From NCBI GenBank assembly GCA_048938025.1, contig JBHLMP010000012.1, positions 43,137-73,155 of the forward strand: a DNA stretch of 30,019 nt, given 5' to 3'. This document shows, piece by piece, positions 133 through 22,942 of this stretch (positions within the stretch are counted from its first letter, which is position 1; each line of letters opens with the position of its first letter). The notes beneath the pieces are model-generated. The model did no database searches. It had not been told where the DNA came from and worked only from the letters and a program-made list of their open reading frames with translations. The stretch is from Promethearchaeota archaeon (lineage in GTDB: Archaea > Asgardarchaeota > Lokiarchaeia > Sigyniarchaeales > SOKP01). The position numbers were made by a program, and so were the translations under genes.

Positions 133-139
133 GGAGGAG
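133..139 (+). promoter_or_regulatory. Shine-Dalgarno site of the histone gene
   Basis: GGAGGAG is complementary to the archaeal 16S 3' end (GAUCACCUCCU) and lies just upstream of in-frame ATT codons at 144 and 147. Confidence 0.75.
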
Positions 140-146
140 ATCTATT

Positions 147-362
147 ATTAGTGAATATATTTCATGGAGCCCTATCAGACGCTTAATGAAACACAATGGT
201 GCTATAATCGTAGCAAGAGATGCTGTGGATGAACTTGTCGATTGGATGGGCCAATCGGCAGAAAAAATAACAAAAGTAGCCTTAAACTTAACTAAACACT
301 CGAAAAGGAAGAAAGTGACAAAGGACGACATTCTTTTAGCCATTAAATACTTTAAAGGCTAA
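147..362 (+). CDS. Archaeal histone (HMf-like histone fold, about 71 aa), not in the ORF track; probable ATT start
   Basis: Manual translation gives (M)SEYISWSPIRRLMKHNGAIIVARDAVDELVDWMGQSAEKITKVALNLTKHSKRKKVTKDDILLAIKYFKG*. The P-I-x-R-L-M-K alpha1 and H-x-K-R-K-x-V-x-x-x-D-I-x-L-A (L2/alpha3) motifs match the archaeal histone fold. There is an in-frame TAA at 126-128 and the stop is at 360-362. Confidence 0.93.
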   Translation: MSEYISWSPIRRLMKHNGAIIVARDAVDELVDWMGQSAEKITKVALNLTKHSKRKKVTKDDILLAIKYFKG

Positions 363-14637: not shown

Positions 14638-16344
14638 TTAAGTTATTTCATAAAATTCTGAATAATCTTCTAAAGAAGCTTTATATCTTTTAAAACCAAA
14701 AAGATTTTGACTAAATAAATCTACTAATCGAATTATCATTTGATCAGGCTGATCTTTTACAAATATTTTAAATCTCTCATTTCTTCTTTCTTCTATGATT
14801 TTAGCTATTTCATCAAATTCATATAATTTTTTTATTAAGTCTTCACCCGGATTATCTAATTCAATTATAATTATTTCACCAGATTGAGGTAATTCTTCAA
14901 TTAAATTGTTGAAGGTTCCTGTTTTAGATTCTAAATTGCTGATAGTTAGGATTTGATCACAATTGGATATTATTCCTTCGGGAGCATAAAAGATTAAAAT
15001 CACATGGAACTTTTCTTTAATTTTTTTCATGTAATTATTAAATTTATCATATTCTAATCGGTCTAATATTTCAAAAGGAATAAAGAACATAATTATTGAA
15101 GGAAATTGTAGTAAAGCCCTGGCAATCGAAAATTGGAGGAATTCTAATTGATTTAATTTGGAAGTTCTTTTATTTTTCTTATGTAGTAATCCAGTGACTT
15201 CTAAAGCATTTTTAATATATATATTTTTAAGACGAAATCTCTTTGAAGTAGCTAAAAATATTTCTTCCATTATATCATCAATCTTTGGTCCAAAACCAGC
15301 ATCTTTCAATATTGTGTTCAATGTAGTTTTTCTATTTTTAAGGATTTCATTAAGATTAATATCATATTTGATTGCTTTCTTAATTTTCATGTTTTTTATT
15401 TTTGATTCATACGCTTGGGGTAGAATTACTATTTTTTCTAAATCTTTTTTATTTAATTGTTGAATATGACTTCCAAAAATCTCAATTGTCCCAGAAAAAT
15501 CAGAATAATTTCCCGAAATAGCCCAAAATAAATAAAATAAATCATATTTATGTTCTTTATCATGGAGTTGTTGTTCCTCATAGAGTATCCCTATTGATTT
15601 TCCTCTATGAATATTGAATGAGACATTTTTTATTCCATTTTTAATAGATACATTATTAAGAATTAAATGCTGAGAATTTTCCTTTAATTGATCCAATTTT
15701 AGATGGTCTGTAACAATTTCACACACTTCATCGATTAGTTGATAAATGTGAGGGGGCTTTAGCTCATTCCAGCTTTTAATAATATTTTTTTCATTAAATT
15801 CTCTTTCATTTATAATTTTTAAAAGTGTTTTCGAAAAGAAAAATGAGGGTAAGAGAGGGTATTTTTCAAAATTTATCTTTAATATTATTATAAAATATGG
15901 GAAAAAAATTCTAATCTCTCTAAAGTAAGGATTATTCTCGATTGGATAATTTTCGAACTTTTTATCTATTAATTCCACTTCTTTATCTAATAATGTTAAA
16001 CGCTTTTGAAATTCTTTTCTAATAAGTTTCCTCATACGTTCAATAATTTTTCTAGGACTGACAAGACCATCCTCATCAAAATCAGGTTCTACAATAATTT
16101 CATTAAAATCAATTTGTTCTTCTATTGGGGTATAGATTTTTAATAATGGTACTCCTTTTTCCATAACGTCTTTGTTTGTAAAAAATAATACTTCGATAAA
16201 CGACTTTTTATAAATTAAATTTAGAATTGATGCAATTCCAAACGTATTTTCTCTATATGTCATCCAAAAGCGCTTCGAATATCTAATTGCTTCTAAGATT
16301 TTTAATCTTAGACGCTCTAATTCATCATTTCTAAAGTTTTTCAA
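14638..16344 (-). CDS. UBC/UEV/RWD-like domain(s) fused to a degenerate (Walker-less) ABC ATPase domain
   Basis: TTG start with an AAGGTG SD, overlapping the upstream stop. ILKINFEKYPLLPSF..KSWNELKPPHIYQLI is UBC-fold-like with no catalytic Cys. IKNVSFNIHRGKSIGIL, LPQ, SIARALLQFPSII and CDQILTI are NBD-like, but GxxGxGK, LSGGQ, DE and the H-loop His are lost. Confidence 0.7.
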   Translation of the reverse strand: MKNFRNDELERLRLKILEAIRYSKRFWMTYRENTFGIASILNLIYKKSFIEVLFFTNKDVMEKGVPLLKIYTPIEEQIDFNEIIVEPDFDEDGLVSPRKIIERMRKLIRKEFQKRLTLLDKEVELIDKKFENYPIENNPYFREIRIFFPYFIIILKINFEKYPLLPSFFFSKTLLKIINEREFNEKNIIKSWNELKPPHIYQLIDEVCEIVTDHLKLDQLKENSQHLILNNVSIKNGIKNVSFNIHRGKSIGILYEEQQLHDKEHKYDLFYLFWAISGNYSDFSGTIEIFGSHIQQLNKKDLEKIVILPQAYESKIKNMKIKKAIKYDINLNEILKNRKTTLNTILKDAGFGPKIDDIMEEIFLATSKRFRLKNIYIKNALEVTGLLHKKNKRTSKLNQLEFLQFSIARALLQFPSIIMFFIPFEILDRLEYDKFNNYMKKIKEKFHVILIFYAPEGIISNCDQILTISNLESKTGTFNNLIEELPQSGEIIIIELDNPGEDLIKKLYEFDEIAKIIEERRNERFKIFVKDQPDQMIIRLVDLFSQNLFGFKRYKASLEDYSEFYEIT

Positions 16345-19300
16345 CTTTCGGCACCTTCATTGCTTTATAACGAAAATATTGTTCCATTTTAGAATCCATT
16401 TGTTTTAATTCCTGAATTGAATTCTTACCCATTTCTTCTTCTATTTTTTCAAACAGTTTATCTATATTTAGATTAGTAAATATTGAAAAACTGATATTTG
16501 CTTTATTTTCTAAAACTTTTTCTATACCTTCAACTAGTTCAAGTCGAGCAATTATATTCTCTTTTGGCTCCCTAAAAGTAATTTCAATCGATCTACCTTT
16601 TCCTGGTAAAGTAGCTAAAAGGTTTTTTGGTTCTCCAAAATCGATCATTCCACGTTTTCGACCAAATATAGCAACAAGATTACAAAATCGGGATTCTTCA
16701 GGATAGTGAGTAATCACAACTAACGTAGTTTTAAATTGCTCATTGATTTTAGTTAAAACTAACCATAAGTTCTCTCTAACTACTGGGTCTAAACCTGATG
16801 TAGGCTCATCTAATATAAGAAACGTTGGTGAATGTATTAATCCAATTGCAATGCTAACACGTCTTTTTTGCCCACCAGAAAGGTCTTTGACTAATTCATT
16901 CATTTTATCTTCTATTTCTAAGCTACGCAAAATTCTCTTAGATCTACTAATAATTTCTTTTTCTGAAAGACCATAACGACTTCCAAAATATAATAAATTC
17001 TCCAAAGTTGTAAAATTATGATAGATTTTTCCTAAATCTTGTGGCACATATCCATATATAGGTCTAATTCTTCTTGACGATCTTTTATTCATATCCATTC
17101 CATAAATTTGACAAAAACCTCTAATTTTTCTCATACCAAGTAAACCTTTTACGAACGTAGATTTACCGGCACCACTCTCTCCTAGAATTCCTAATATTTT
17201 ACCATGTTTTACATTCATAGAAACAGAATCAACAATTAATTTTCCTCCTGCATAAATACTTAGGTTTTCACAATTAATGGCTGGAAACTTTTGCAAATAA
17301 GAAATATTAAGCTTTCCTCCAATACCCAATGTTAATCTTATCCTTTGTGGTATTGAAAGTCTTTGATATAATTTTAACAAAATGAATAAACCAATTCCAG
17401 CAATTTCTGCTATTAAAATATATGTTAATAATTGACTCCAGGGTTTAGAATCAAAGCTCTGGTCATACTGTAATTCATCCACAATAATTATACCATAAGC
17501 TATATTTCTTAAATCTCCTCCAAATCCAGGATTATCTCCAATTCCTCCAGTATTTAAACTAATGCATTGAATAAACCAATTTAAAGTATTTTCAATATTT
17601 TCTGGTTGGAACCTATAATCATAAAGTGCTTTTGCTCCAATATAAGTTATTAAAAATGTTGATGGTAAAGATAAATAACTCCCTAGGGCAGGCAGAACTG
17701 AAAAAGAACCATCAAGAGTTTGTGCATTTTTTAGAAATTCGATGGCGGATATTTTAGACATTGGTTCGGAATGTAGCAATTCAGTAAATATTTCAAGTCC
17801 ATAATAGGTTGAAATTACATCACTATAAAATCCAACATATAGCGAAAACCCACCATCAGGATTTTGACATGATCTCATCCAATGAGTAAGATTATTATAA
17901 TCGATATGATTTACTCCACCGAGTATTTTCAATGAAGTTAAAGCCCAATATGTACTTTCAACAGTTGAGATATTCGCATTAATTAAATACAAAAATACTT
18001 TATACAATGGTCCAAACATAGAGAGAATTATTTCAACATCTCCACCTATGCTAAACCCTCCATCAGGATTTTGGAGATCAACTAAATACCTTTTTGTATT
18101 ATTAATTGTAGAGGAATCAAGCCATTCATTAGTGAAAGGACGAAGCATTTTGTAGATATTCAGTCCACAATAGGTTGAAAAAAGTGTTGCATTTTCTCCA
18201 GGATTGGATGCAAATCCTCGATTATATTGATTATAACATTGGTTAACGAAAAATGTAATATTATTTAGTATATCCTCATTAATGATTTCCTCATTTATTG
18301 TTCCATACAATATTTTTGGATTATATTTATAAAGCGCTAAAATTCCAAAATAATTCGCTTGAATAGTAGTCCGACCAAATAAAGAATTTTTACCTTGAAA
18401 ATAATGAAGCCAATCATAATACCTAAGAATTATATCGTTGATCCCGGAAAAATTCGTTAAATTGTCTTCTCTTAGAATATCGATTGCTTTTATAGCAGCC
18501 CATCCAGATTTAAAGTTTGAATTGTCATCAGGATGTAAGCCAAAACCTCCATCTGAGCTTGAACAATCAAGTATATAAGATAAAGTTTTTGTATCGTTGA
18601 AAAATGTGGGTTTTGGTAATCCTAATACTCTTAATGAGGAAAGCGCATAATATGTTGATTGGACATCGGAAAATCCCCCTATGATGCTAGCAAATCCTCC
18701 ATCGATGATGTTATAAAGTGAATTATAGTATCCCCAAATAGCAGTTTGTTCACTAGCTGTATAACTCATATTCAACCCTAAAAATGCTTTGATTCCATAA
18801 TATGTTGTTTCTGCTGTTGCGATACTTAAAACAGTGTCTGTTAATTTGTAACTACCAGCAAGCCATGTTGAATTGATGAAATTTGAAATGTTATCATTAT
18901 CAATGATAAATTCAGCATTTAAGGTGTTTGCTAAATCAATAGCCATTGATGTAGAAATTATATCAGATTCATTTAGAAAGGGTAATGCCATGAATCCTTC
19001 TCCATTATCTTTCAATGAAACATTTAAATAATTAATAATATTATCTGTGTCTCCCTGCTGTATTTTTCGAGTTAAATAAGATTTATTAGCAATCTCTAAA
19101 GTTTTTAAAGCGTTATAAGTGGAAATCATGTTACCAAGTCCAGCTACATCTGAATATGACCCATCTATATTTTGTTTTTCAAATATGTAATCAAAAAATA
19201 TATTTGGTTTGTATGCTTTAATGTATATATTTGAAATGTTATTTGGGTTTATTAAATTGGAAGAAGAAATACTCGCAAAAGAAAAATTTATTGAGTCAAT

Positions 19301-19531
19301 TGCTCTGAAATTTGAATCTAAATTCGGTTCGATGAATAATCCCTGCTCATTTTGATGCGTCCATGTAAAAAAAACAGCATTGTCTTTAATGAATTGAACT
19401 TCATGATCCTCTATATATGAAATGTAACGAACGTTCACTAGAACTAAAGAAAGACTTGTAATACCAATGAGAATGCTCATTAATAATAAGTTTCTCAAGT
19501 TTCGCTTGTTTTTACGGCTTAAATTAATTAT
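16331..19531 (-). CDS. Fusion protein: N-terminal TM/signal, extracellular prenyltransferase/squalene-oxidase repeat barrel(s), TM helix, intact ABC ATPase (start ATA 19531 or ATT 19528 by SD; TTG 19498 in the ORF track)
   Basis: About 9-10 Q/N-x-D-G-G-F...STYY/WAL repeats; many N-x-S/T sequons; TM LLTYILIAEIAGIGLFILL; Walker A GESGAGKS, Q-loop GYVPQ, LSGGQ, Walker B LILDEP, H-loop ITH. Confidence 0.88.
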   Translation of the reverse strand: MINLSRKNKRNLRNLLLMSILIGITSLSLVLVNVRYISYIEDHEVQFIKDNAVFFTWTHQNEQGLFIEPNLDSNFRAIDSINFSFASISSSNLINPNNISNIYIKAYKPNIFFDYIFEKQNIDGSYSDVAGLGNMISTYNALKTLEIANKSYLTRKIQQGDTDNIINYLNVSLKDNGEGFMALPFLNESDIISTSMAIDLANTLNAEFIIDNDNISNFINSTWLAGSYKLTDTVLSIATAETTYYGIKAFLGLNMSYTASEQTAIWGYYNSLYNIIDGGFASIIGGFSDVQSTYYALSSLRVLGLPKPTFFNDTKTLSYILDCSSSDGGFGLHPDDNSNFKSGWAAIKAIDILREDNLTNFSGINDIILRYYDWLHYFQGKNSLFGRTTIQANYFGILALYKYNPKILYGTINEEIINEDILNNITFFVNQCYNQYNRGFASNPGENATLFSTYCGLNIYKMLRPFTNEWLDSSTINNTKRYLVDLQNPDGGFSIGGDVEIILSMFGPLYKVFLYLINANISTVESTYWALTSLKILGGVNHIDYNNLTHWMRSCQNPDGGFSLYVGFYSDVISTYYGLEIFTELLHSEPMSKISAIEFLKNAQTLDGSFSVLPALGSYLSLPSTFLITYIGAKALYDYRFQPENIENTLNWFIQCISLNTGGIGDNPGFGGDLRNIAYGIIIVDELQYDQSFDSKPWSQLLTYILIAEIAGIGLFILLKLYQRLSIPQRIRLTLGIGGKLNISYLQKFPAINCENLSIYAGGKLIVDSVSMNVKHGKILGILGESGAGKSTFVKGLLGMRKIRGFCQIYGMDMNKRSSRRIRPIYGYVPQDLGKIYHNFTTLENLLYFGSRYGLSEKEIISRSKRILRSLEIEDKMNELVKDLSGGQKRRVSIAIGLIHSPTFLILDEPTSGLDPVVRENLWLVLTKINEQFKTTLVVITHYPEESRFCNLVAIFGRKRGMIDFGEPKNLLATLPGKGRSIEITFREPKENIIARLELVEGIEKVLENKANISFSIFTNLNIDKLFEKIEEEMGKNSIQELKQMDSKMEQYFRYKAMKVPKVEKL

Positions 19532-20547
19532 TTCTTAATCACCTTCATTGTCTTTAAATTCTTTTCTTTTTCTTCCTCCTTTTGAATCCTAATTTGAAAA
19601 TATCTTCTAAAAGAAGCAAAATCTTTACTCATTGAATTAATTTTTATGTCATTCTTAACCATATATTGAATTAATTTTGATAGATTTTCCTCAAAATCAT
19701 CCATTAGGACCTCAATTTCTTCATTTCCAACCCTTAATAATGTTTTAATAGCTGAGAATTGTTTAATATATTCAATTAGCTCTTCATTTAAATGTTCAAT
19801 TGTAAATCTTGCGACTAATCCATTACTCGGTAATGATGATATTAACTTTTGAGGTGTATCAAACTCTAACAATTTTCCTTCCCTTAAAATCGCTGCTTTA
19901 TCACATATCAATGCTGCTTCAAGGTCATGAGTTATAATAAACATGGTAGTATTTAATGTTTGATTTAGCTTTTTCAGGTACGTAAGAATATCGTATCGTT
20001 TACTTGCATCTACACCTGTAGTTGGTTCATCAAGGAATAAAACACTTGGTCTGTGAATTAGTCCAAGTGCCATTGAAAGACGTTTCTTTTCACCCCCACT
20101 CATGTGTTTAACTCGCTTTTTCCATGTATCTTCAGGGAGGTCAAGAATCTTAAATAAACTCTTGGCAGTTTCTATTGCTTCTTTTTTATTCTTGCCATAA
20201 GTTGAAGTAAAAACTTCAACATTATCAAATGGACTTAAATCAAAATATAAATTTAGTAACTCTAATTGAGGTACATAGCCAATATTAGTCAATATTAATG
20301 AATGATTAGATTTTTTTGCTGGAGATAAATCAGTTACCTTTACATTACCAGTCCAATTTTTTTTTTCTATTTGACATGTTAATACTCTAACTATTGTTGT
20401 CTTTCCTGCTCCTGAGATTCCGAATAATCCAATAATCTCTCCCTGATTCACATCAAAGTTAACGTCATGAATAATATGTTTTTCACCAAATTTTACATTT
20501 AAATCTTTGACATCCACCATTGTTTTCTGTGATTTCGATGAATTAAT
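19528..20547 (-). CDS. ABC-2 type transporter ATP-binding subunit (ATT at 20547 by SD; ATG at 20520 in the ORF track)
   Basis: Walker A GISGAGKT, GYVPQ, MSGGE, LFLDEP, ITHD, plus a C-terminal regulatory domain. Confidence 0.93.
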   Translation of the reverse strand: MNSSKSQKTMVDVKDLNVKFGEKHIIHDVNFDVNQGEIIGLFGISGAGKTTIVRVLTCQIEKKNWTGNVKVTDLSPAKKSNHSLILTNIGYVPQLELLNLYFDLSPFDNVEVFTSTYGKNKKEAIETAKSLFKILDLPEDTWKKRVKHMSGGEKKRLSMALGLIHRPSVLFLDEPTTGVDASKRYDILTYLKKLNQTLNTTMFIITHDLEAALICDKAAILREGKLLEFDTPQKLISSLPSNGLVARFTIEHLNEELIEYIKQFSAIKTLLRVGNEEIEVLMDDFEENLSKLIQYMVKNDIKINSMSKDFASFRRYFQIRIQKEEEKEKNLKTMKVIKK

Positions 20548-20550
20548 TTT

Positions 20551-21783
20551 TTACACCTCATATTTTCTTCTTCTGAAGATTACAAAAGAAATTATCACTA
20601 ATATTAGACTAATTATAAATAACCAAAAGAAATGCATACCAATTACAGGCTGACCTTTTGTAATAATTCCTCTGATCATAGGATCTCCATGAGATAAGGG
20701 TAGAATATATGCAAAAAATTGTAAAAAAGAAGGCATATTTTCAATAGGAATGAATATACCACTTAATAATACTATAACAAGATAGAAAGCGAGAAATAAT
20801 TGATTAGCCTGTGTTTTTGTCTTACTCTGTGAGCTAATAAAAATACCCAATGATACTCCAGAAAATCCAATGATGAATAATGCTATAAATAAATCTACTA
20901 TATTGCCTGCCAGATATAATCCCATAGCCAAACTACTAATTACTAATAAAGTAACCTGAAGTAATAATACAAGCATATATGCTATATATTTTGAGGTTAG
21001 AATTTCAGATCTTTTTAGAGGAGTAAGTAAAAGTCGTGCGACTGGTTTCTCTTGAACGATTACTAAAATAGATAACACAAATGCAATCCCAAAAACCATG
21101 AAAGATAGAGCCATAACTATACTAGAATTGAATGAACTGCTATAACCCTCCGGAATAGTAAATTCTTCAAATCCTTGGACCTCAAATTGAGGAGTTAGAT
21201 TCGTATCATTTATAAATATTTTAATTGAATCATAGACCGCATTTAGACTCTGTTGAATATATAGAATATTTGAAGCATCAAGAATACAATCGATTAATCC
21301 GGGAAGACCCCATTCTAACATTTCAGAAAAACCAACTGGTATTGATAAAATAATTCTAATAGATCCAGAAATTAAATCCTCTCTTGCTTGTTCCATAGCA
21401 TAAATTTCTTCTGTTGCATTATAGAACCGAACCAAATCAAGTAACTCTGATTTATTCACGGCATTTACATAGGGTATAGTATAATGATCTAATTTTGATT
21501 CTACAAGATCATTTTCATTAATAAATGTATTAGAATCATATGATACTACTACACAGGGAATAGATTGTAGTTGACTCGAATCATCGGTCATTGTAAAACC
21601 TAACATAACTATTATTAAAGGGGGCATCACTATTGCTAACATTATATTAAATTTATCAGCCCACAAAAGTTGAAATTCTTTTTTGACTTGTTTTACGATT
21701 CTAAGAATACTCAGTTTTAAATTTATAATTTTATTACTGAATTTTTTAAAATTTAATCTTAAAGATTTCTTCTTAAATCTCAC
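20551..21783 (-). CDS. ABC-2 type permease (YbhR/YhhJ-like) with a large extracytoplasmic loop
   Basis: KKEF..DK N-terminal motif, TM1, large loop, ARLLLTPLKRSEILTSK, LSGIFIP..MP..LPLSH. GTG start with a GAGGT SD. Confidence 0.92.
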   Translation of the reverse strand: MRFKKKSLRLNFKKFSNKIINLKLSILRIVKQVKKEFQLLWADKFNIMLAIVMPPLIIVMLGFTMTDDSSQLQSIPCVVVSYDSNTFINENDLVESKLDHYTIPYVNAVNKSELLDLVRFYNATEEIYAMEQAREDLISGSIRIILSIPVGFSEMLEWGLPGLIDCILDASNILYIQQSLNAVYDSIKIFINDTNLTPQFEVQGFEEFTIPEGYSSSFNSSIVMALSFMVFGIAFVLSILVIVQEKPVARLLLTPLKRSEILTSKYIAYMLVLLLQVTLLVISSLAMGLYLAGNIVDLFIALFIIGFSGVSLGIFISSQSKTKTQANQLFLAFYLVIVLLSGIFIPIENMPSFLQFFAYILPLSHGDPMIRGIITKGQPVIGMHFFWLFIISLILVIISFVIFRRRKYEV

Positions 21784-21787
21784 TATA

Positions 21788-22942
21788 TTATACCTCTAAT
21801 TTCTTAAACATGTAAATGATGTAAGCTAATATAATATAAATCAAAGAACTTAAATTAAGCCAAAAAAGATTATATAAATTTGGAAATAATCCTTTTAATG
21901 TTATATCGGTTATCAGTGGAACTGCATTTGATAGCGGGAGTAAATTTATAAAAATTTGTGCCCCTTGCAAATCAGTATTTAAAGGAAGAATATTTCCAGA
22001 AAAAAGGATTATCACAATAAACATAATTATATACATTTGATTTGCACTTTGCTCTGTTGGGCTTAAAGTTGAAATAAATAACCCAATGCAAATCCCGCAA
22101 AAACCAATCATTATTAGAACCAAAAAAAGAAAAAACAATGAACCTAAACTATATAATCCAAAGAATGATACCATAACAAATATCTCAGCTGATTGAAGTA
22201 GCATAATCATCGAATTCGCAATCAATTTACTCAAAATTATCTCTCTTTTAGCTGTTGGAGTTACAAGCATTCTTGGAAGTGGACCCTCAGCAACGATTGA
22301 GAGCGAGGTTAAATTCATAGTAGTTCCAAGAATTATAATGGGTAAAATTAATGGAATAGCGTAATTTAAAATAGCTGATTCCCAAAAGGGAACATCAAAT
22401 TCTAAATATGGAACCATCATTGTAAAATTGGCAATCATGCCTGTTTCTGCCCGAAATAAAGCAATAGGCTCTTGTATGGCAACTTCAATAGCTGTTATTG
22501 CAGCAAGATCAGATGCATCAATATAATAAATTAGAACTGGGCTAATCTTATTTTCAACGGATTCTGAAAAATTTGCTGGCAGAATTATGATTATGTGTAT
22601 ATCGCCATTTTTTAGGAAATTATAACAATTATGGTATGCATTATCAAATTCTTCTGAATTGGTTGCATTATAATATCTATAAAGGTCCCAAGATGAGGTA
22701 TTATATTGCATTATTGATATGAAGGTATCATCATATTTAGAGGAATTATTAGGAAAATCGTCATATGTAGGCATATCATCACAAGTTATAATAGCAGATG
22801 AAAAAAATTTTGTAATGCCTACTCCGGTTGTTAGACCAAATACAACAATTAAAATAATAGGAATTACAAACAACAACAATAATGTCCTTTTATCTGATCT
22901 GATTCTACCAAATTCTTTTCTAACTAATCCGCCTAAATACAT
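21788..22942 (-). CDS. ABC-2 type permease (YbhS/YhhJ-like), paralogue of the downstream permease
   Basis: RKEFGRIRSDKR, TM1, large loop with sequons, RMLVTP...EIILSK, FSGNILP..LLPLS. Confidence 0.92.
   Translation of the reverse strand: MYLGGLVRKEFGRIRSDKRTLLLLFVIPIILIVVFGLTTGVGITKFFSSAIITCDDMPTYDDFPNNSSKYDDTFISIMQYNTSSWDLYRYYNATNSEEFDNAYHNCYNFLKNGDIHIIIILPANFSESVENKISPVLIYYIDASDLAAITAIEVAIQEPIALFRAETGMIANFTMMVPYLEFDVPFWESAILNYAIPLILPIIILGTTMNLTSLSIVAEGPLPRMLVTPTAKREIILSKLIANSMIMLLQSAEIFVMVSFFGLYSLGSLFFLFLVLIMIGFCGICIGLFISTLSPTEQSANQMYIIMFIVIILFSGNILPLNTDLQGAQIFINLLPLSNAVPLITDITLKGLFPNLYNLFWLNLSSLIYIILAYIIYMFKKLEV

Follow-up and report, generated by a model that had tools for sequence, protein, structure and literature searches.

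In the window analysed here, which is the whole stretch of 30,019 nt, from an AT-rich Asgard archaeon of a Loki-type lineage, two adjacent genes on the minus strand carry a Shine-Dalgarno (SD) word at the usual distance from an in-frame ATT or ATA. This raises the question of whether these codons are the true starts and, as proposed in the initial annotation, whether such initiation is routine in this organism. From the comparisons described below, we put at roughly 0.88 the probability that many genes of this genome, including these two and the gene for initiation factor aIF1, begin at ATA, ATT or ATC (ATH) behind a ribosome-binding site and sometimes, which widens the earlier ATT/ATA reading, also at CTG or ACG. 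The support for ATH starts across the genome consists of an enrichment specific to frame and spacing, N-termini conserved upstream of the canonical codons, and codon interchange among orthologues.

Two putative coupled starts at ATT and ATA

The features that bear on the two genes, plus a histone-fold gene used for comparison, are as follows.

147..362, plus strand: histone-fold gene, read from ATT 147, with GGAGGAG at 133-139
16331..19531, minus strand: 1066-aa gene, with an N-terminal membrane anchor, prenyltransferase-like alpha-alpha toroid repeats and a C-terminal ABC ATPase domain
19496..19498, minus strand: TTG, the earliest in-frame canonical codon for the 1066-aa protein and a rival start (ATG 19480 is next)
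19528..20547, minus strand: ABC transporter ATPase gene, 339 aa, from ATT 20547 to TAA 19530-19528 (Pfam ABC_tran, E = 1.2e-25, residues 27-177)
19529..19531, minus strand: ATA, proposed start codon of the 1066-aa gene, 9 nt past the T of GGT and overlapping the ATPase TAA as ATAA
19538..19544, minus strand: SD word AGGTGAT, inside the last codons (K-V-I) of the ABC ATPase gene
20518..20520, minus strand: ATG, the earliest in-frame canonical codon for the ABC ATPase, which may act as a second start or encode an internal Met, kept in 6/6 orthologues
20545..20547, minus strand: ATT, proposed start codon of the ABC ATPase gene, 7 nt past the T of GGT and 3 nt past the permease stop
20551..21783, minus strand: upstream ABC-2 permease gene (Pfam ABC2_membrane_3), from GTG 21783 with SD AGAGGT 8 nt upstream; its 3′ end holds the ATPase SD
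20554..20559, minus strand: SD word GAGGTG, located in the final codons (E-V) of the permease gene, kept in 6/6 same-genus orthologue loci

The permease gene ends in a TAA at 20553-20551, and ATT 20547 is in frame with ATG 20520, situated 27 nt upstream of it; no SD-like word was found in the 30 nt preceding this ATG. Re-reading the positions therefore bore out the description of GAGGTG (20559-20554) followed by an in-frame ATT, with an ATG 20520 that lacks an SD. It did the same for AGGTGAT (19544-19538), followed by in-frame ATA 19531 and ATT 19528, the former overlapping the upstream TAA as ATAA. This ATT (19528-19526) comes directly after the ATA, and both are in frame with TTG 19498 and ATG 19480. 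The product of the 1066-aa gene matches Pfam Prenyltrans (E = 1.2e-35) and ABC_tran (E = 2.3e-26), and its extension reads I-I-N-L-S-R-K-N-K-R-N before a hydrophobic stretch; the translation thus contains the basic n-region (NLSRKNKRN) that had been ascribed to it.

Spacing is given here as the number of bases separating the T of GGT from the codon, the anchor distance being one greater. Our recount returned the same spacings as first reported, both for the non-canonical codons (7 for ATT 20547, 9 for ATA 19531 and 8 for the histone ATT 147) and for the canonical starts ATG 11384, TTG 16344, GTG 21783 and ATG 24768 (8 in each case). The anchor distances of the two focal codons, 8 (ATT 20547) and 10 (ATA 19531), fall within the range of 7-10 at which canonical first in-frame ATGs peak, with a maximum at 9. 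The ABC ATPase most likely starts at ATT 20547 and the 1066-aa toroid-ABC fusion most likely at ATA 19531, each as a coupled, operon-internal start.

Conservation of the extensions among orthologues

Orthologues of the two focal genes share 70-91% protein identity, and the extension peptides are conserved in them (six loci for the ATPase, seven for the 1066-aa gene). Indels within the extensions are multiples of three, whereas those in the spacers are not. For the ABC ATPase, an in-frame ATH occurs at an anchor distance of 8-10 in 6/6 orthologues (ATT in four, ATA in one and ATC in one); the indels between SD and ATH are of +1 and +2 nt, and the sole indel past the ATH is of -3 nt. The conserved extension and the exclusively in-frame indels argue that the long form of the ABC ATPase is under selection.

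The seven same-genus loci of the 1066-aa gene all retain an SD-like word (AAGGTGAT, GAGGGTGAT or AAGGTGGT) and an in-frame ATA at SD spacing. The position of TTG 19498 is not conserved, reading CTA, CTA and TTA in orthologues L041, L043 and L044. A TTG is retained one codon further upstream in L043, and L041 and L044 lack any canonical codon there. L041 has CTA also at the position of ATG 19480, so that neither position holds a canonical codon in it. In a distant orthologue (L046), the gene begins with ATG behind GGAGG and encodes a basic N-terminus of equal length.

In this genome, canonical codons are present downstream for both genes (ATG 20520; TTG 19498 and ATG 19480). Initiation could then occur both at the ATH and at the downstream canonical codon, yielding a long and a short form, a possibility to which we give about one chance in four. 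The ABC ATPase, with its ATT 20547 and ATG 20520, is the likeliest case. Besides the conservation of this ATG in all six orthologues, two of them have extra in-frame ATG codons just upstream of its position, and the nine-residue extension matches no family profile, the ABC_tran match starting at residue 27 and requiring nothing upstream of the ATG. In the systems examined to date, near-cognate codons are also weak as starts. Sulfolobus aIF1 discriminates against AUU (PMC4705826). The absence of an SD before ATG 20520 and the selection apparent on the long form weigh against a short form.

Frame and spacing of codons behind SD words across the genome

Initiation at the ATH codons has also to be weighed against chance, in which case the canonical codons (ATG 20520; TTG 19498 or ATG 19480) would be the real starts and the SD-like words mere codons of the upstream genes. 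Both words do sit within coding sequence (E-V; K-V-I), a candidate of the same type in the MCM gene proved to be such an accident (see below), and lack of an SD is normal here, since an SD 5-mer at an anchor distance of 8-10 precedes just 214/3110 first canonical starts.

A whole-genome SD-centred tally was dropped in favor of an ORF-anchored zone test, because the codon periodicity of coding sequence swamped the former. In the zone at SD spacing, in-frame ATA, ATT and ATC showed 38/4463 occurrences versus 56/26718 for other codons, an approximately 4-fold enrichment (Fisher p = 5e-10), and the AT-rich permutations AAT, TAT and TTT were depleted. No enrichment of ATH was found with a reversed mock motif or in deep coding sequence, where all codon classes lay at 0.16-0.43%. 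The zone test thus sustains the earlier view of non-canonical initiation as routine, in that in-frame ATH at SD spacing exceeds the AT-rich background.

We then defined as orphan SDs those 6-mer ribosome-binding sites without a nearby ATG, GTG or TTG and situated upstream of the first canonical start of a long ORF (n = 62). In frame, these face ATH in 17/23 and CTG in 2/23 cases at offset 9, and ATH in 12/31 at offset 10 and 4/8 at offset 8; in the other two frames at offsets 8-10, ATH ranged from 0/8 to 2/31, and in background frames and offsets it amounted to about 10% or less. The 19/23 near-cognate codons at offset 9 correspond to a binomial p of 6e-13. While a single SD/ATH pair could be fortuitous, this genome-wide result, together with the retention of SD, in-frame ATH, extension and frame in 6/6 and 7/7 orthologues at 70-91% identity, and with an orthologue (L041) devoid of canonical codons at the TTG 19498 and ATG 19480 positions, argues that neither site is due to chance, an explanation that we regard as unlikely.

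Near-cognate codons make up around a fifth to a quarter of the SD-led genes, themselves a minority in this genome, and the candidates are spread over 28 contigs. About 10 of the approximately 40 entries in the candidate list are expected to be chance matches, one of them proven (the MCM 'SKGG' site). A bias towards operon-internal positions was not found: a same-strand ORF ending at -10 to +30 nt lies upstream of 16/73 near-cognate and 76/214 canonical SD-led starts. A search of the assembly for the 16S rRNA gene gave no match, and the anti-SD was thus not read directly; the SD consensus used is one that we take to apply, its backing in this genome being the enrichment itself.

Probable non-canonical starts in other protein families

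Among 37 further candidates, the Pfam match begins upstream of the first canonical start in 11, with families including NifU_N, CbiM, UQ_con, HhH-GPD, Oxidored_FMN, HxlR, Response_reg, Ras and Fer4+ETF. The same occurs in the histone-fold gene, whose CBFD_NFYB_HMF match starts at 168 in the window, the first ATG coming only at 186. In this genome there is no usable canonical start in the genes for aIF1, CbiM, an E2 enzyme, an AAA ATPase and MCM. Position 1 of CbiM is ATT in 3, ATG in 26 and TTG in 1 of 30 loci, and all three ATT-type genes carry AAAGGTGA. The start position of MCM, alignable in 74 of 80 loci, is occupied by ATG (32), TTG (28), ACG (9), GTG (2), ATT (1), ATA (1) and ACT (1). 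The interchange of ATG with ATT or ATA anticipated for orthologue alignments was therefore found, in the 1066-aa gene, CbiM and MCM.

The MCM gene of this genome has ACG as its real start, 49 codons upstream of an ATT that stands behind AAAGGAGG and was one of 39 candidates. This ATT was rejected as a start because AAAGGAGG represents conserved S-K-G-G codons inside the gene.

A standard initiator tRNA

The route that we envisage would need no special tRNA. The 3′ end of the 16S rRNA would pair with an SD word centred on GGTGA, and the pairing would set the codon approximately 8-10 nt downstream in the P site. There, the ordinary CAU initiator tRNA would accept AUG, GUG and UUG and, at a useful rate, also AUA, AUU and AUC, with CUG and ACG less often. 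ATH-started proteins would thus presumably carry Met as their first residue.

The initiator tRNA gene of this genome (contig C55, 10639-10771) has anticodon CAU, A1, a GGG/CCC anticodon stem and two introns. Its exons match at 100% the intron-less tRNA-Met(CAT) gene of a relative from the genus (aligned positions 1-77 of 79 nt), and only blastn with that gene located it; it was missed by ARAGORN, run with and without introns, by the Rfam tRNA model (25 matches) and by two motif scans of the genome because of its two introns. This tRNA shows no changed anticodon or anticodon stem.

Alternatively, a dedicated initiator-like tRNA with an Ile anticodon might read AUA, AUU and AUC, and proteins would then start with Ile instead of Met. 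We scanned 41 genomes of the genus with a pattern for the initiator-type anticodon stem-loop that allowed any base at position 34. The predominance of ATH in the non-canonical set would fit such a tRNA, and TAT and AAT variants of the stem-loop occur at 6 places in 5/41 genomes; yet these variant sites are all non-tRNA by ARAGORN, the apparent use of CTG and ACG fits the mismatch tolerance of a single CAU tRNA, and a standard CAU initiator is present, making this explanation very improbable. The matches of the pattern scan were rejected as evidence for a special tRNA, since 9/10 were not tRNAs by ARAGORN and a reversed control pattern matched about as often. An origin in contamination, ATG-to-ATH sequencing errors or broken genes is scarcely credible, even though the assembly is a draft in 88 contigs reconstructed from a metagenome, its contamination being estimated at 5%. 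The candidates lie on 28 different contigs, and the same ATH codons turn up again in other species whose genomes were assembled independently, some of them closed in a single contig.

The aIF1 gene and usage in related genomes

The stretch of the aIF1 gene from the in-frame stop to the zinc knuckle contains no ATG, GTG or TTG, and its only near-cognates are two ATT codons. Read from the first ATT, the protein begins no more than 2 residues from the N-terminus of chain 4mo0_A. In 29/29 evaluable loci among the best 30, the gene offers no near-cognate other than ATT (in one locus, ATC). The gene for this fidelity factor thus starts, in a conserved manner, at a codon that aIF1 discriminates against, as described for AUU in Sulfolobus in the accessible text of PMC4705826.

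In 32/33 evaluable aIF1 loci, a short upstream reading frame consists of a GTG plus 4 codons and terminates at a TAA overlapping the ATT. The overlap is trivial because AAA follows the ATT, and the GTG itself belongs to the SD-like word.

By analogy with bacterial infC, the ATT start of aIF1 may establish a feedback loop, in which low aIF1 would lead to more AUU initiation and hence to more aIF1. Start-codon selection may be relaxed, as suggested in the initial annotation, and aIF1 may be the means. In a second species of the genus (G006, 800 kb), the zone test gave 11/1248 for ATH versus 12/8307 for other codons, and orphan SDs at offset 9 gave 10/11; the near-cognate share is similar in that species, and two genomes from a different family (f2) show a several-fold lower one. 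It is tempting, if doubtful, to extend this to a family-wide low stringency held by an AUU-started aIF1 in a loop of the infC or eIF1 kind, with about a quarter of the SD-led genes near-cognate, and several-fold fewer in sister lineages with ATG or TTG aIF1 genes. The link between the aIF1 start codon and genome-wide near-cognate usage is thin, the contrast covering two genomes versus two.

Relation to known systems

In bacteria, infC (encoding IF3) and pcnB start at AUU behind an SD, and infC is autoregulated because IF3 rejects non-canonical starts. The genes described here resemble infC in that an SD-positioned AUU would be read by a normal initiator tRNA, and in that the gene of a fidelity factor (here aIF1) bears the weak codon, conserved across genera. 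They differ in that the aIF1 fold is unrelated to that of IF3, the host is an archaeon, usage spans about a fifth to a quarter of the SD-led genes instead of a handful of regulatory ones, and the feedback is here a proposal. IF3 is treated as a fidelity factor in the accessible text of PMC4705826.

The likeness to eukaryotes lies in the same set of one-mismatch codons, a homologous gatekeeper (eIF1/aIF1) and a suboptimal start of the factor's own gene. Eukaryotic near-cognate initiation, at CUG, ACG, AUU and others, is tuned by eIF1, and Ivanov et al. reportedly described, in 2010, autoregulation of eIF1 through a poor start context. In contrast to eukaryotes, SD pairing and not scanning would position the start, and the weak element in aIF1 is the codon itself, not its context.

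Reviews name AUG, GUG and UUG as archaeal starts in the parts available (PMC7531240, PMC4705826). For AtubA, from a Kariarchaeaceae (Heimdall-type) Asgard genome, a 'likely rare ATT start codon' with a plausible ribosome-binding site is described in PMC13394414; like the genes here, AtubA has conserved sequence, its first beta-strand, that is encoded only if the upstream ATT behind the site is the start, but in the accessible text this concerns one gene, called rare, from another Asgard class, with no genome-wide or comparative claim. Ribosome profiling of Haloferax volcanii assigned about 30% of putative alternative initiation sites to near-cognates, set aside to limit false positives (PMC7261190, text as available). 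This hints that archaeal ribosomes can initiate at near-cognates, although the sites concerned are internal or alternative ones, not main starts of conserved genes, in a euryarchaeon that is GC-rich and mostly leaderless. Our literature search, with supplementary tables outside its scope, found no paper on systematic non-NTG starts in Asgard archaea or on a non-AUG start of aIF1.

Implications

To our knowledge, the start codons accepted by common gene finders are limited to ATG, GTG and TTG, in which case they would truncate or overlook dozens of genes in each genome of this clade. Among the affected candidates are eukaryote-like proteins that are now the subject of expression and structural work, such as the E2 enzyme, small GTPase, gelsolin, histone, MCM and aIF1, and the published tubulin study, in its accessible text, had to mend such a start by hand (PMC13394414). 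A lineage with a normal initiator tRNA and other start codons would offer a natural system for how aIF1/aIF2 stringency is set. If low stringency is indeed held by an AUU-started aIF1, near-cognate initiation tuned by eIF1/aIF1 dosage would predate eukaryotes. A weak start on the gene of a fidelity factor is found in bacteria (infC), in eukaryotes (the poor context of eIF1, an analogue) and, as proposed here, in archaeal relatives of eukaryotes, which would make the origin of eIF1-type non-AUG control directly testable.

Candidate ATT and ATA starts in the window

The initial annotation had proposed that two reading frames on the minus strand start at ATT and ATA codons placed behind Shine-Dalgarno (SD) words, instead of at the downstream canonical codons (ATG, GTG or TTG). 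The two encode an ABC ATPase and a 1066-aa protein.

Features around the candidate starts (positions in the window)
21788-22942, minus strand: ABC-2 permease gene (Pfam)
20551-21783, minus strand: ABC-2 permease gene (Pfam)
20559-20554, minus strand: SD word GAGGTG, within the last codons of the preceding permease gene as read from the sequence
20553-20551, minus strand: TAA stop of the same permease gene
20547, minus strand: ATT, proposed ABC ATPase start, in frame with ATG 20520 and 27 nt 5′ of it
19528-20547, minus strand: ABC ATPase gene (Pfam)
19544-19538, minus strand: SD word AGGTGAT, within the final codons of the ABC ATPase gene
19531, minus strand: ATA, proposed start of the 1066-aa gene, overlapping the ATPase TAA as ATAA and sharing its frame with TTG 19498 and ATG 19480
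16331-19531, minus strand: gene for a 1066-aa fusion protein that joins prenyltransferase-like toroid repeats to an ABC ATPase domain (Pfam)
133-362, plus strand: histone-fold gene (Pfam match from 168; first ATG only at 186)

Both proposed pairs, GAGGTG with ATT 20547 and AGGTGAT with ATA 19531, are present at these positions, confirming the observation, and ATG 20520 indeed has no SD-like word across the 30 nt upstream. The spacings from the T of GGT are likewise exact, with 7 nt for ATT 20547, 9 nt for ATA 19531 and 8 nt for ATG 11384, TTG 16344, GTG 21783 and ATG 24768, as well as for the ATT at 147 of the histone-fold gene, which sits 8 nt after GGAGGAG.

Comparison of the 1066-aa gene in seven loci from the genus, including our own (70-100 % identity), showed that the SD-like word and the in-frame ATA, at a distance of 10 from the T of GGT (the anchor; distance equals spacing plus one), are kept in all seven. 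The extension peptide is conserved as I-(I/V)-x-L-(S/G)-(R/H)-K-x-K-R, with synonymous changes; in one of the loci (L041), CTA replaces both TTG 19498 and ATG 19480. In another family, an orthologue with 40 % identity has an ATG behind GGAGG and an equally long basic N-terminus. For the ABC ATPase, all six loci compared contain GAGGTG followed at distance 8-10 by an in-frame ATH codon (ATA, ATT or ATC; ATT in four, ATA in one and ATC in one) and the pattern I-(N/S)-S-x-(K/E)-(S/T). Indels between SD and ATH were of +1 and +2 nt, and the sole indel 3′ of ATH was of −3 nt. A second start of the ABC ATPase at ATG 20520 is possible, since this codon is also kept in 6/6 loci.

Near-cognate codons at SD spacing across the genome

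The organism is a Loki-type Asgard archaeon, and its genome is a 3.52-Mb draft in 88 contigs, with 29 % G+C. Proteins of the E2 ubiquitin-conjugating, gelsolin and Ras/Arf types are among its products. No 16S gene was found in the assembly, and SD words were defined as k-mers of an assumed consensus rather than read from the organism's own 16S. Among 3124 ORFs taken from stop to stop and at least 120 codons long, first in-frame ATGs peaked at anchor distances 7-10 (counts of 67, 47, 103 and 77).

We then considered orphan SDs, that is, 6-mers situated 5′ of the first canonical start of the ORF and with no ATG, GTG or TTG in any frame at distances 4-15 (n=62). The in-frame codon at distance 9 was ATA, ATT or ATC in 17 of 23 cases and CTG in two, giving 19/23 near-cognate codons (binomial p = 6e-13); in-frame ATH also occurred in 12/31 cases at distance 10 and in 4/8 at distance 8. 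In the other two frames, at the same distances (8-10), ATH ranged from 0/8 to 2/31, and at other in-frame distances it was ca. 10 %. A 6-mer SD at distance 8-10 preceded 16/1769 ATA, 13/2154 ATT, 9/540 ATC and 2/112 CTG codons, and 57/26813 of all other codons; for first canonical codons, the figures were 44/2022 for ATG, 18/755 for TTG and 4/333 for GTG.

An origin of this signal in the AT-rich background is at odds with the controls: AT-rich permutations were depleted (AAT, 1 observed vs 6.3 expected; TTT, 2 vs 6.8), all codon classes deep within ORFs had an SD at 0.16-0.43 %, and a reversed mock motif showed no enrichment in the same test. The tally suggested by the initial annotation thus reveals an ATH enrichment above background that is specific for frame and spacing.

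SD-led genes are a minority, with a 5-mer at distance 8-10 in 214/3110 first canonical starts. After background subtraction, near-cognate codons account, by rough estimate, for ca. 0.25 (6-mers) or ca. 0.19 (5-mers) of SD-led starts. Their SDs are longer, reaching at least 6 nt in 35/73 near-cognate candidates vs 66/214 canonical SD-led starts; a preference for operon-internal positions was not found (16/73 vs 76/214).

Protein families extending upstream of canonical starts

Conserved coding sequence was found 5′ of canonical starts. A Pfam scan covered 37 of 39 candidates, the remaining two being the window genes, scanned separately; the match began 5′ of the first canonical codon in 11/37, from a list that is impure, with ca. 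10 of ca. 40 expected by chance.

Examples of candidates
NifU_N: match at residues 2-126; first ATG at codon 7
CbiM: match at residues 2-212, profile positions 1-204; first ATG at codon 24
UQ_con: first canonical start at codon 69
Response_reg: match from residue 4; first canonical start at codon 15
Fer4+ETF, behind CTG: first ATG at codon 59

Separately, in two HdrA-like ORFs of 183 codons (contigs C85, minus strand, and C87, plus strand; locus L035) conserved sequence precedes any canonical start, and no convincing ATH was found at SD spacing. These ORFs could be gene fragments; alternatively, translation might pass through an upstream stop, for instance a selenocysteine TGA.

Start codons interchange among orthologues

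Alignments of orthologues bore out the expected interchange of start codons, with ATA versus ATG in the 1066-aa gene, ATT, ATA and ATC in the ABC ATPase, and further series in CbiM and MCM. Since profile position 1 of CbiM corresponds to residue 2, the ATT lies one residue before the match, at the N-terminus of the family. Position 1 in 30 CbiM loci is ATG in 26, TTG in one and ATT in three, namely our genome and the two relatives nearest to it. Each of the three ATT-starting genes has a strong word, AAAGGTGA, upstream, and no comparable SD was found in the other 27 loci, where the codon is ATG or TTG (all within L158-L187), which suggests that a strong SD may make up for a weak codon.

Two further genes with long 5′ regions lacking ATG, GTG and TTG
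Contig C48, locus L018 plus 150 nt upstream, minus strand: MCM gene, 67 codons without them
Contig C7, ORF containing locus L003, minus strand: AAA ATPase ORF, 260 codons without them

The homologous start position of MCM, alignable in 74 of 80 loci, is ATG in 32, TTG in 28, ACG in nine, GTG in two, and ATT, ATA and ACT in one each, the ACT being misaligned by one codon and adjoining an ATG. The start is ACG in our genome, and the nine ACG loci (9/74 alignable Promethearchaeia loci), which include its closest relatives, have it behind AAGTGA or GAGTGA. Another candidate SD in MCM, one of the 39 candidates above, was rejected, because the motif consists of the conserved codons S-K-G-G and is a proven accident. 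In the AAA ATPase ORF, the Walker A motif lies near codon 85 and the second codon is an ATT behind GAGATGAT, an SD with one mismatch.

Initiator tRNA and the aIF1 gene

Genes for initiation components
C55:10639-10771, plus strand: initiator tRNA gene, CAU anticodon, two introns
C24:2575-2913 (locus L188:1462-1800), minus strand, outside the window: aIF1 (SUI1) gene

ARAGORN and the Rfam tRNA search of the genome both missed the initiator tRNA gene, whose two introns interrupt the anticodon loop, after position 37, and the T-arm. Its exons are 100 % identical to the intron-less tRNA-Met(CAT) gene from a relative in the genus over aligned positions 1-77 of 79 nt, with A1, a GGG/CCC anticodon stem and the CAU anticodon. 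The initiator tRNA is thus normal, and a dedicated tRNA is not indicated.

The aIF1 gene has no ATG, GTG or TTG between the upstream in-frame stop and the zinc knuckle. Its first canonical codon occurs 34 codons past the first Cys, within the fold, and the only near-cognate codons upstream are two ATT, leaving ATT alone available as start. With the first ATT as start, the protein would begin within two residues of the N-terminus of the solved Methanocaldococcus jannaschii aIF1. The arrangement is the same in all 29 evaluable loci among the best 30 in the order; the codon is ATT in 28 of them and ATC in the other.

Start codon of aIF1 by family (f) and genus (g)
f1 g14, g15, g17, g20, g22: ATT
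f1 g18: GTG
f1 g13: GTG, upstream of an ATA
f2 g8: ATG
f2 g2, g9: TTG
f2 g11: GTG
f2 g5: ATA, no canonical codon upstream
f2 g10: ATA, in-frame GTG three codons upstream
f4: ATG

Additionally, in 32 of 33 evaluable aIF1 loci of relatives (L189-L218, L234-L237), a GTG followed by four codons in another frame ends in a TAA overlapping the ATT (ATTAA); this short frame may merely result from the SD-like GGTTGTGA word together with the ATT-AAA codon pair.

Distribution among relatives

The same zone test was applied to 800 kb from each of three relatives.

ATH and other codons with a 6-mer SD
G006 (same genus): 11/1248 vs 12/8307, Fisher p 5e-5; ATH at distance 9 from orphans, 10/11; near-cognate share, 0.34
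G055 (f2, aIF1 ATG): 3/760 vs 9/5328, Fisher p 0.18; 2/2; 0.07
G032 (f2, aIF1 TTG): 3/731 vs 5/4788, Fisher p 0.08; 1/3; ca. 0.09 (by hand arithmetic from the test counts)

Therefore, in these 800-kb samples the near-cognate habit is strong in our genus and weak or non-significant in the two f2 genomes, a contrast of two genomes against two that is suggestive only.

Implications for initiation

Two reviews give archaeal starts as AUG, GUG and UUG (PMC7531240, PMC4705826), and one of them describes SD motifs as not prevalent in Prometheoarchaeum (PMC7531240). A tubulin study of 2026 puts forward a single ‘likely rare ATT start codon’ with a ribosome binding site in a Heimdall-type genome (PMC13394414), and a ribosome profiling study of Haloferax set aside ca. 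30 % near-cognate alternative sites (PMC7261190). Our literature search, limited to main texts, returned no systematic report of non-NTG starts in Asgard archaea, nor any report of aIF1 starting at a codon other than AUG.

Our results support the reading that this organism initiates routinely at AUU and AUA, where Met would probably be the first residue. Bacterial infC starts at AUU, and the ATT start of the aIF1 gene described here parallels it. In Sulfolobus, AUU is discriminated against by aIF1, according to a review (PMC4705826). We infer that start-codon stringency would be lowered through aIF1, and that an infC-like feedback would act on aIF1.
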